DNA of 64,000 bases, from IMG/VR virus record IMGVR_UViG_3300013104_000022, positions 1-64,000 of that record; one strand, 5' to 3'. The translations under genes and the position numbers were made by a program. Each line of letters starts with the position of its first letter. Position 1 is the stretch's first letter. The notes below the pieces were generated by a model that did not search any database, was not told the origin of the DNA, and saw only the letters and a program-made list of their open reading frames with translations. This document shows positions 5,568 through 5,710 of the stretch, piece by piece. Source of the stretch: a virus.

Positions 5568-5605
5568 AGAAAGCCCCTGACTTCGATGTAGATCGGTCAA
5601 GGGCT
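5568..5605 (-). terminator. Attenuator terminator upstream of the Pro-to-Leu tRNA operon
   Basis: AGCCCTTGAC-CGAT-ctac-ATCG-aa-GTCAGGGGCT then TTCT; 5' arm CTTGACCG is complementary to CGGTCAAG just after the leader stop. Confidence 0.75.
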
Positions 5606-5631
5606 GAGGCTTTTTAGAGCGCACTTGACCG

Positions 5632-5673
5632 CTAGCTGGGGAAATCCAGTTCGTGATACAAGAAAGCGTTCAT
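5632..5673 (-). CDS. Leaderless 13-aa leader peptide MNAFLYHELDFPS (putative tRNA-operon attenuator)
   Basis: ATG 7 nt after -10; codons 4-12 match the amino acids of the downstream tRNAs. Confidence 0.8.
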   Translation of the reverse strand: MNAFLYHELDFPS

Positions 5674-5680
5674 GTCTACG

Positions 5681-5710
5681 ACTATACCTTACTGACCTAC
5701 AAAGTGTCAA
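5681..5710 (-). promoter_or_regulatory. SigA-type promoter of the Pro-to-Leu tRNA operon
   Basis: TTGACA-18 nt-TATAGT. Confidence 0.85.

Follow-up and report, generated by a model that had tools for sequence, protein, structure and literature searches.

The first 64,000 nucleotides (nt) of the IMG/VR virus record IMGVR_UViG_3300013104_000022 (hereafter the window) carry, on the minus strand ahead of a transfer RNA (tRNA) operon, a compact leader unit: a promoter, a short open reading frame (ORF) that spells out the amino acids of the operon's tRNAs, and a hairpin whose 5′ arm can pair alternatively with sequence adjoining the ORF's stop codon. We think it likely that this unit is a ribosome-mediated transcription attenuator of the trp/his type, and that it controls the phage tRNA operon. 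Such a reading had been put forward in an original prediction made from the sequence of the window; it gains support from homologous leaders, from the way in which leader composition tracks tRNA content, and from the geometry of the competing pairings.

Parts and conservation of the leader unit

The leader unit and the operon that follows it consist of the following features:

5681-5710, minus strand: leader promoter, with -35 TTGACA (5710-5705), an 18-nt spacer and -10 TATAGT (5686-5681)
5632-5673, minus strand: leader ORF, 13 codons and a TAG stop, peptide MNAFLYHELDFPS
5620-5632, minus strand: antiterminator 5′ strand, core CGGTCAAG (5631-5624), directly 3′ of the stop codon
5606-5623, minus strand: antiterminator loop, a small hairpin and the motif GCGC...AAA...GC
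5572-5605, minus strand: predicted terminator hairpin, outer stem of 10 base pairs (bp), inner stem of 4 bp, 4-nt loop, -18.6 kcal/mol
5562-5571, minus strand: U-tract, short and interrupted, TTCTGCATCT, with TTCTGC directly after the hairpin
3068-5511, minus strand: controlled operon, tRNA Pro, His, Asp, GOLLD RNA, Glu, Glu, Tyr, Phe, Leu, an aberrant long-arm tRNA, Leu, Leu

The promoter (TTGACA-18-TATAGT) and the ORF at 5673-5632 were found just as the original prediction had described them, as were the perfect pairing of 5624-5631 with 5594-5601 and the 10+4-bp hairpin. The promoter matches 11 of 12 consensus positions and is the best promoter-like site in positions 1-9000 of the window. 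Only 7 nt separate its -10 hexamer from the ATG at 5673, and the transcript is therefore predicted to be leaderless or nearly so. The ORF, which thus starts 7 nt after the hexamer, ends 120 nt ahead of tRNA-Pro.

Codons 4-12 of the ORF (F L Y H E L D F P) specify the seven amino acids carried by the operon's canonical tRNAs, all of them and nothing else. ARAGORN places these tRNAs downstream on the strand of the leader and identifies them as Pro(tgg), His, Asp, Glu(ctc), Glu(ttc), Tyr, Phe, Leu(tag), Leu(caa) and Leu(gag). Two further calls of the program are an aberrant long-arm 'Thr(agt)' at 3265-3347 (Rfam score 31.7 bits) and a cloverleaf with a tca anticodon ('tRNA-SeC(tca)') at 4415-4487, within the GOLLD RNA. 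The claim that the leader covers the amino acids of its operon and no others holds, then, only for the canonical tRNAs, as the original prediction had worded it. The chance that a set of seven amino acids equals the operon's seven is 1 in 77,520.

The window is the first part of a 95-kilobase (kb) record, estimated to be 74% complete, from a rhizosphere metagenome assembly; a contig of 127 kb is listed for this phage by a protein search. Its MRE11-like nuclease finds its best matches, at most 53% identical, in phages of Microbacterium, Gordonia and Mycobacterium, and the host is therefore probably an actinobacterium. The phage has no close cultured relative. A DNA search of a phage collection for close relatives returned tRNA-Pro matches only, a search of IMG/VR for the exact leader pattern returned no match, and the MRE11-like neighbour, used as a single-protein query, recovered no loci. 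Relatives were reached through a neighbouring protein of 328 residues (7303-8289), whose homologues were aligned and the alignments then used to fetch loci; the closest relatives of this protein in a protein search, which gives Logan as their source, are 75-76% identical to it. Three of the metagenomic phage contigs so obtained (L002, L003 and L004) share the tRNA block of the window in identical order; six others (L007-L012) have a homologue of the 328-residue protein with no tRNA array nearby and are uninformative for the leader. A blastn search with the L003 array led to Microbacterium phage Pumpernickel and, through Pumpernickel, to Cece, A3Wally, Big4 and Zooman. Together with the window, the three contigs and five cultured phages make up the nine loci compared here.

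In all nine, ahead of tRNA-Pro, a -10 element of the form TANNNT is followed after 6-7 nt by an ATG, an ORF of 13-17 codons, a stop codon and a hairpin with a U-tract; the tRNA block that they share is ordered Pro-His-Asp-Glu-Glu-Tyr-Phe-Leu. The spacing of the -10 element in every locus is that of leaderless actinobacterial genes and agrees with the leaderless start that had been proposed for the window. In the records of the five Microbacterium phages the leader ORF is unannotated. The runs of codons that name the operon's amino acids are:

Window: FLYHELDFP
L004: HLYPFELDYP
L002: FDYELHLEDP
L003: HLLPEDYF (F and S precede)
Pumpernickel and Cece: YELDFHLEP
A3Wally: FYEFDLHLEPL
Big4 and Zooman: YELDFHLEPL

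Every run, at a length of 8-11 codons, contains all seven amino acids, and the order of residues differs between lineages. The original prediction had asked whether homologues keep the ORF and its amino-acid match; both are kept, with the order shuffled. Between Pumpernickel and Cece the nine run codons show five synonymous changes and not one that alters the peptide, the surrounding region being 78% identical. In A3Wally an L and an F have changed places, so that the peptide differs and its amino-acid set does not. A single S, in L003, is the only replacement from outside the set: nowhere does I, V or M stand for L, or N or Q for D or E, and the first kind of exchange is one that a peptide under structural selection would often show. 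A soil contig ∼90% identical to the window has no differences from it in 5612-5690, against 20 substitutions and 7 gaps in 5691-5869.

Runs of this kind are rare. We scanned six frames of 540 kb (the whole record and 13 loci) for runs of at least 8 codons drawn from F, L, Y, H, E, D and P and containing all seven; the nine leaders were recovered and only one other place. A scan of the 95-kb record, on the tRNA strand, for a leaderless short ORF followed by a terminator returned two leaders (the second is described below) and only one other site. The same scanner found no leaderless ORF with a terminator ahead of the tRNA genes of Gordonia phage GodonK and Streptomyces phage Daubenski, in which tRNAs are interspersed among coding genes; not every actinophage, therefore, has the leader element.

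A second promoter-like site (TTGACA-18-TAAGAT, 5867-5838, minus strand) lies ∼130 nt upstream of the leader promoter and is followed by an ORF-free stretch ending in a run of nine A residues (region 5711-5867, minus strand). It is a candidate for a tandem promoter or for a small RNA. In the soil contig many differences fall in 5691-5786, and only one deleted base is listed for 5787-5869. Two ORFs on the opposite strand, 5625-5855 and 5732-6142, have no Pfam match.

Competing pairings and the match between leaders and operons

The core of the antiterminator strand, CGGTCAAG (5631-5624), is the exact complement of CTTGACCG (5601-5594), which is held in the 5′ arm of the terminator hairpin; the two can form a perfect pairing of 8 bp that excludes the hairpin. 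The antiterminator duplex of the window has a predicted energy of -15.6 kcal/mol as against a shuffle mean of -7.3 (p = 0.004). The terminator hairpin for its part is retained when all 164 nt of the leader are folded to minimum free energy (z = -2.67 relative to shuffles), and a homologous hairpin is present in L004.

When divergent leaders are aligned with MAFFT for column-wise covariation their stems fall out of register, and duplex tests on each sequence were used instead. The best duplex that the terminator's 5′ arm makes with the 24 nt surrounding the stop codon was compared with that of 2,000 shuffles in eight leaders, Zooman being omitted as its element equals that of Big4. Values of p ranged from 0.0025 to 0.23 per leader, with a combined p = 2.9e-6 over five lineages. 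In all eight the antiterminator strand is found at -9 to +13 of the stop codon. The sequences of the antiterminator strand and the terminator arm differ among lineages and yet stay complementary (CGGTCAAG, CTAGGTC, GGCTTAGAG, GGGAGTCT). The CGC core of the antiterminator loop is invariant in 8/8 aligned leaders, and the small hairpin with its CGC motif is possibly a pause element. In the Microbacterium phages the leader unit occupies a divergent intergenic region; the hairpin is therefore not the terminator of an upstream gene.

The effect of a ribosome was modelled by folding the transcript up to the terminator loop under a 30-nt ribosome mask. For five of the nine leaders the model predicts that the terminator arm is sequestered with a probability of ∼0.7 both in the absence of a ribosome and with the A site anywhere in codons 2-10, and of 0.0-0.2 with the A site at the stop. 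For Pumpernickel and Cece, sequestration is 0.7-0.9 at codons 5-8, 0.2-0.3 at the stop and ∼0.2 without a ribosome, the last value being low because the antiterminator strand is taken up by a segment internal to the ORF. In seven of the nine, the antiterminator is predicted to form by default when no ribosome is present. That a ribosome at the stop codon would mask the antiterminator, as had been proposed for the window, thus agrees with the position of the strand in eight leaders, with the combined duplex test and with the behaviour of the window in this model.

The sequence TTGACA occurs in the loop or inner stem of the leader terminator in all five Microbacterium phages (L013-L017), and again in the loop of the terminator of the second leader in Pumpernickel and A3Wally; TTGACC occurs in the 5′ arm of the leader terminator in the window and L004. 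It is either an embedded element resembling a -35 hexamer or else a by-product of the pairing.

The match extends to the level of codons. In the window a tRNA of the operon reads eight of the nine run codons under standard wobble, the exception being CCC with Pro(tgg). Across the loci, and CCC in the window and L002 apart, an operon's own tRNAs suffice to read all the run codons of its leader in each case where the complete operon is available (the L004 contig ends after five tRNAs, and its operon is seen in part). In three Microbacterium phages ARAGORN misses the tRNA-Tyr needed for TAT: it was found by eye in Pumpernickel and by homology in Zooman, and is annotated in the record of Big4. Proline codons are CCT or CCC in phages with Pro(ggg), and CCG, CCA, CCG, CCC and CCC in those with Pro(tgg) only. 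That the Pro codon follows the Pro anticodon is suggestive only, the cases being few and not independent.

Two points of annotation arose from this comparison. An unannotated tRNA-Tyr(gta) lies in the gap between Glu and Phe in Pumpernickel (L013 4687-4933) and in Zooman (L017 ∼5338-5421), and the A3Wally record names its tRNAs with the anticodon read as a codon, making its amino-acid labels wrong.

A stronger test is offered by a sister unit near the beginning of the window, ahead of a second tRNA operon:

343-506, minus strand: sister unit, with promoter TTGACA-18-TAAGGT (506-477), 6 nt, a 22-codon leader (470-402), a hairpin (377-347) and a U-tract

This unit lies ahead of tRNA-Ser(gga) (256-171), soon after which the contig ends within operon 2. 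The amino acids of its leader (I, Q, T, S, K, R, G, A, V and N) are complementary to those of leader 1. A second leader ahead of a second tRNA operon is also present in L003 (15073-15147), Pumpernickel (L013 ∼9086) and A3Wally (L021 ∼2925); a search of L003 for leaders ahead of its further sub-arrays found none besides its first and second. For two phages the leader codons for which just one of the two operons supplies a tRNA were counted by operon and compared in a 2x2 Fisher test:

Pumpernickel, codons of operon 1/operon 2: leader 1, 9/3; leader 2, 2/19; Fisher p = 2.5e-4
L003, codons of operon 1/operon 2: leader 1, 9/2; leader 2, 1/14; Fisher p = 1.6e-4

Each leader therefore goes with its own operon, which answers the question, raised with the original prediction, of whether leader composition tracks tRNA content. 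Individual amino acids follow suit. W is present in leader 2 of Pumpernickel and A3Wally, whose operon 2 carries tRNA-Trp, and absent from leader 2 of the window and L003, where tRNA-Trp sits elsewhere. A and M occur in leader 2 of L003, and tRNA-Ala and tRNA-Met in its operon 2 (A is also found in leader 2 of the window, whose operon is cut by the end of the contig). I is absent from leader 2 of A3Wally, and no tRNA-Ile is seen in its operon 2.

Proposed mechanism, alternatives and known systems

Computation shows the parts themselves, how far they are conserved, the match of codons to tRNAs and the mutual exclusion of the two pairings; where transcription starts, that the leader is translated, that transcription terminates, which way the response runs and what purpose it serves are inferred. 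Translation of the leader is supported indirectly by the purely synonymous changes between Pumpernickel and Cece, by the amino-acid set that the lineages keep and by the leaderless geometry. Transcription would start at or beside the ATG at 5673, and the leaderless message would be translated at once by a 70S ribosome. In the 13-codon frame that ribosome would meet every one of the seven amino acids served by the downstream tRNAs, once or twice each. If decoding were fast, the ribosome would reach the TAG and cover the strand at 5631-5624, the hairpin at 5605-5572 would form, and transcription would terminate before tRNA-Pro. If the ribosome stalled within the first ten or so codons, for want of a scarce charged tRNA, or if no ribosome were present, the strand would pair with the 5′ arm of the terminator and polymerase would read into the operon. 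The tRNA products would in this way feed back negatively on their own synthesis, the leader forming an OR gate over seven amino acids. The sister leader would act likewise on the second operon, and the pairing in Pumpernickel and Cece between the ORF-internal segment and the antiterminator would resemble the 1:2 pairing of trp.

Because each amino acid is represented by only one or two codons, the attenuator is expected to answer chiefly to a tRNA that is severely depleted or to decoding that has slowed overall. Such a response fits, and does not prove, a role against host tRNA nucleases or the loss of tRNA during infection. Beside the arrays of the Microbacterium phages lie genes for a peptidyl-tRNA hydrolase, an RtcB-like or RNA ligase and an ADP-ribosyltransferase. 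It is possible, and we suggest it tentatively, that the two complementary leaders (one for seven amino acids, the other for ten or more), which between them cover almost all of the code, amount to an inventory of tRNAs read by the ribosome, in which any depleted tRNA switches on its own operon, and that together with the peptidyl-tRNA hydrolase and RNA-ligase genes they constitute an on-demand circuit of counter-defence and homeostasis. Host anticodon nucleases and tRNA decay during infection would be candidate causes of depletion. If true, this would be the first leader-peptide attenuation in which the regulated product is the molecule that is sensed.

A number of points weigh against attenuation. 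The evidence is computational throughout, and RNA-labelled sequencing runs gave either no cover or tRNA-like fragments only. The nine loci are homologous and do not represent nine independent events; loci being homologous, it is conservation and not repeated invention that carries the argument. The U-tract of the window (UUUCU) is the weakest of the nine, the relatives having 3-6 U, often interrupted. In the equilibrium model L002 and L004 show no clean masking at the stop (0.71 and 0.52), and stalls at the last two or three run codons, the only Pro codon among them, are predicted to mask the antiterminator. CCC is unread by Pro(tgg) under standard wobble, and Pro(tgg) is all that the window and L002 possess. 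Each amino acid has one or two codons in the leader, where classical attenuators use tandem codons, and sensitivity to a mild tRNA shortage should be low as a result. Finally, control may be evaded at two places: a promoter-like site ahead of the GOLLD RNA (4934-4905) possibly drives the distal tRNAs too, bypassing the attenuator, and the site at 5867-5838 could yield longer transcripts in which the leader ORF is internal. The caveats attached to the original prediction, concerning the short U-tract, the reading of CCC by Pro(tgg) and the internal promoter at 4905-4934, all stand.

The same hardware could also serve another signal, namely general translation capacity, amino-acid charging or the timing of infection, with no operon-specific feedback by tRNAs; the operon would then be on whenever ribosomes were scarce or slow. 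With the antiterminator the predicted default in seven of nine leaders, any loss of initiation would lead to read-through; one codon per amino acid suggests a gauge of speed over a sensor of a single amino acid, and an uncharged tRNA would stall the ribosome as well as a missing one. A general gauge has, however, no need to limit its codons to the tRNAs of its own operon, nor any need of two complementary leaders each matching its own operon, and we consider it rather unlikely. We give little credence to the view that the ORF encodes a small peptide with a function of its own, the hairpin being its ordinary terminator and the tRNAs arising by read-through or from other promoters. Every lineage has its stop codon within the terminator-competing strand; the order of residues is shuffled between lineages with the set kept; conservative replacements never step outside the set (L is not exchanged for I, V or M, nor D or E for N or Q); and the set equals that of the operon's tRNAs at odds of 1 in 77,520, with the second leader behaving likewise. 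These facts stand against the purifying selection on the peptide, the recurrence in several lineages of a core Y-E-L-D-F with a later P, and the precedent of trans-acting leader peptides (peTrpL, PMC7298713), all of which speak for a functional peptide.

An element that acts as RNA alone (a signal for processing or stability, a protein-binding leader or a riboswitch-like switch), in which the frame is incidental, would account for a leader that folds more stably than its shuffles (z = -2.67) and for the conservation of the CGC-centred motif and the ACAGAGGAA motif at the nucleotide level. It would not account for an ORF whose nucleotides diverge, close relatives differing by synonymous changes alone and deeply diverged ones still sharing the amino-acid set; in addition, Rfam family matches in the region at E up to 1 are to tRNA and GOLLD only, with no T-box. 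We regard this alternative as very improbable. As for a chance ORF beside a chance hairpin, short ORFs and hairpins are common and the probability figure given with the original prediction was post hoc, yet the nine conserved loci, the one background occurrence in 540 kb and the second matching pair of leader and operon leave chance practically no room. As far as computation can go, it is refuted by conservation, the background scan, the second leader-operon match and the duplex test.

Attenuation by leader peptides is well known from enterobacteria, in trpL, hisL, pheL and leuL, in the multivalent leaders thrL and that of ilvGMEDA, and in pheM of pheST. The leader unit resembles these in having a short ORF with relevant codons close to the promoter, a putative intrinsic terminator ahead of the first gene, a terminator and an antiterminator that compete for a common strand, and a stop codon at which a terminating ribosome would mask the antiterminator. 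The proposed signal, stalling for want of a charged tRNA, is also the same, and the multivalent leaders likewise sense more than one amino acid. Unlike them, the present element is phage-borne, has a predicted leaderless messenger RNA, and would control tRNAs, the molecules that the leader consumes, in place of biosynthetic enzymes or synthetases. Where the enterobacterial leaders have tandem runs of one amino acid it has seven (ten or more in the sister leader), each once or twice, and a 1:2 protector hairpin is predicted only in the leaders of Pumpernickel and Cece. For an individual enterobacterial example, pheL, see PMC3082878. Among actinobacteria, ilvBNC of Corynebacterium glutamicum has a leader-peptide attenuator that senses Ile, Val and Leu through alternative hairpins (PMC11857589); its targets are cellular genes for amino-acid biosynthesis, those of the window leader phage tRNA genes.

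In mycobacteria leaderless translation needs only a 5′ start codon (PMC4633059), and leaderless short-ORF attenuators rich in cysteine codons (polycysteine ORFs) exist there (bioRxiv 10.1101/834739; predicted in PMC4633059). These too are actinobacterial, unannotated, leaderless first-gene short ORFs whose stalling codons are linked to the function downstream. They sense one amino acid, whereas the window leader would sense seven, and they act on translation: the stalled ribosome opens a structure that hides the ribosome-binding site belonging to the next gene. Unmasking of this type does not describe the window, where the next genes are tRNAs without a ribosome-binding site and the downstream hairpin carries a U-tract. 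Since the downstream genes are untranslated tRNAs, control must act on transcription or on the fate of the RNA.

The closest case in print is a long inducible tRNA array, the trn operon, of Anabaena sp. PCC 7120 (PMC8421152, PMC10272220). It is governed by a repressor, TrcR, that binds direct repeats over the -10 box, and neither a leader peptide nor attenuation is mentioned (PMC8421152, PMC10272220). The likeness is that an accessory tRNA array is on when translation is impaired (on the phage side this is proposed), and that RNA-repair genes lie near both: rtcB in Anabaena, and an RtcB-like ligase, an RNA ligase and a peptidyl-tRNA hydrolase in the Microbacterium phages.

T-box riboswitches bind uncharged tRNA without a ribosome and control synthetase and amino-acid genes. 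They share with the proposed attenuator the sensing of tRNA status through a choice between terminator and antiterminator. No T-box match was found in positions 1-9000 of the window, where Rfam at E up to 1 gives only tRNA, GOLLD and three chance-level hits.

The class of mechanism is thus textbook; what is new is the tRNA target, the listing of many amino acids and the feedback by the product. No published link of phage or cellular tRNA operons to leader peptides was found in the literature searched. Phage tRNA genes are usually seen as constitutive helpers in codon usage or as replacements for tRNAs destroyed by the host, and to our knowledge the control of their expression is largely unexplored. 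If our reading is true, phages use the ribosome as their gauge of decoding capacity and produce tRNAs when these are needed, and a textbook mechanism extends to non-coding products, product feedback and the sensing of many amino acids. The element is present in cultured, low-risk systems and is testable at the bench (Microbacterium foliorum, M. paraoxydans and M. radiodurans with A3Wally, Big4, Zooman, Pumpernickel and Cece). It also suggests a rule for annotation that is usable on other phages: a short ORF that mirrors a downstream tRNA array marks the boundary of a tRNA transcription unit.

The tRNA operon and its surroundings

Further features of the controlled operon are as follows:

5516-5529, minus strand: conserved motif containing the 11-mer ACAGAGGAATC (5516-5526), 4 nt ahead of the first tRNA
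4905-4934, minus strand: promoter-like site TTGACA-18-TAAGCT, ahead of the GOLLD RNA
4125-4557, minus strand: GOLLD RNA (RF02032), 229.7 bits, E 1e-64, between tRNA-Asp and tRNA-Glu
3033-3063, minus strand: strong intrinsic terminator that closes the operon, a 13-bp stem followed by TTTTTGCTG

A GOLLD RNA occupies the same place in the operon of L004 (9506-9891, 224.6 bits). In the window the promoter-like site at 4934-4905 probably drives this RNA, to which we assign it.

The exact 11-mer ACAGAGGAATC recurs 4 nt before the first tRNA of operon 2 (261-271, minus strand), and its complement is found at 3158-3168, between the last two tRNAs of operon 1. Ahead of tRNA-Pro a motif resembling CACAGAG(G)A is present in all relatives. 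The ACAGAGGAATC motif may contribute to a leader-trailer processing helix or be a signal of another kind.

In L002 an HNH gene is inserted between the leader terminator and tRNA-Pro. The window has an ORF resembling HNH or endonuclease VII (5864-6286, minus strand; a weak Pfam match to PF02945) between Trp- and Met-like tRNAs and the leader. The related soil contig joins 5869 directly to sequence at ∼6300, and the ORF at 5864-6286 is therefore an insertion.

After tRNA-Trp there is a sequence resembling tRNA-Met, with the anticodon-loop sequence CTCATAA and acceptor-like ends, both in the window (∼6295-6375, minus strand) and in L004 (∼8120-8195). Neither ARAGORN nor the Rfam tRNA model calls it; its position is occupied by a regular tRNA-Met(cat) in L002 and L003. 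Ahead of tRNA-Trp a promoter-like site (6516-6545, minus strand) overlaps a perfect 14-bp inverted repeat, CCTCAGGGACGTGT ... ACACGTCCCTGAGG, which spans the -10 element and looks like an operator.

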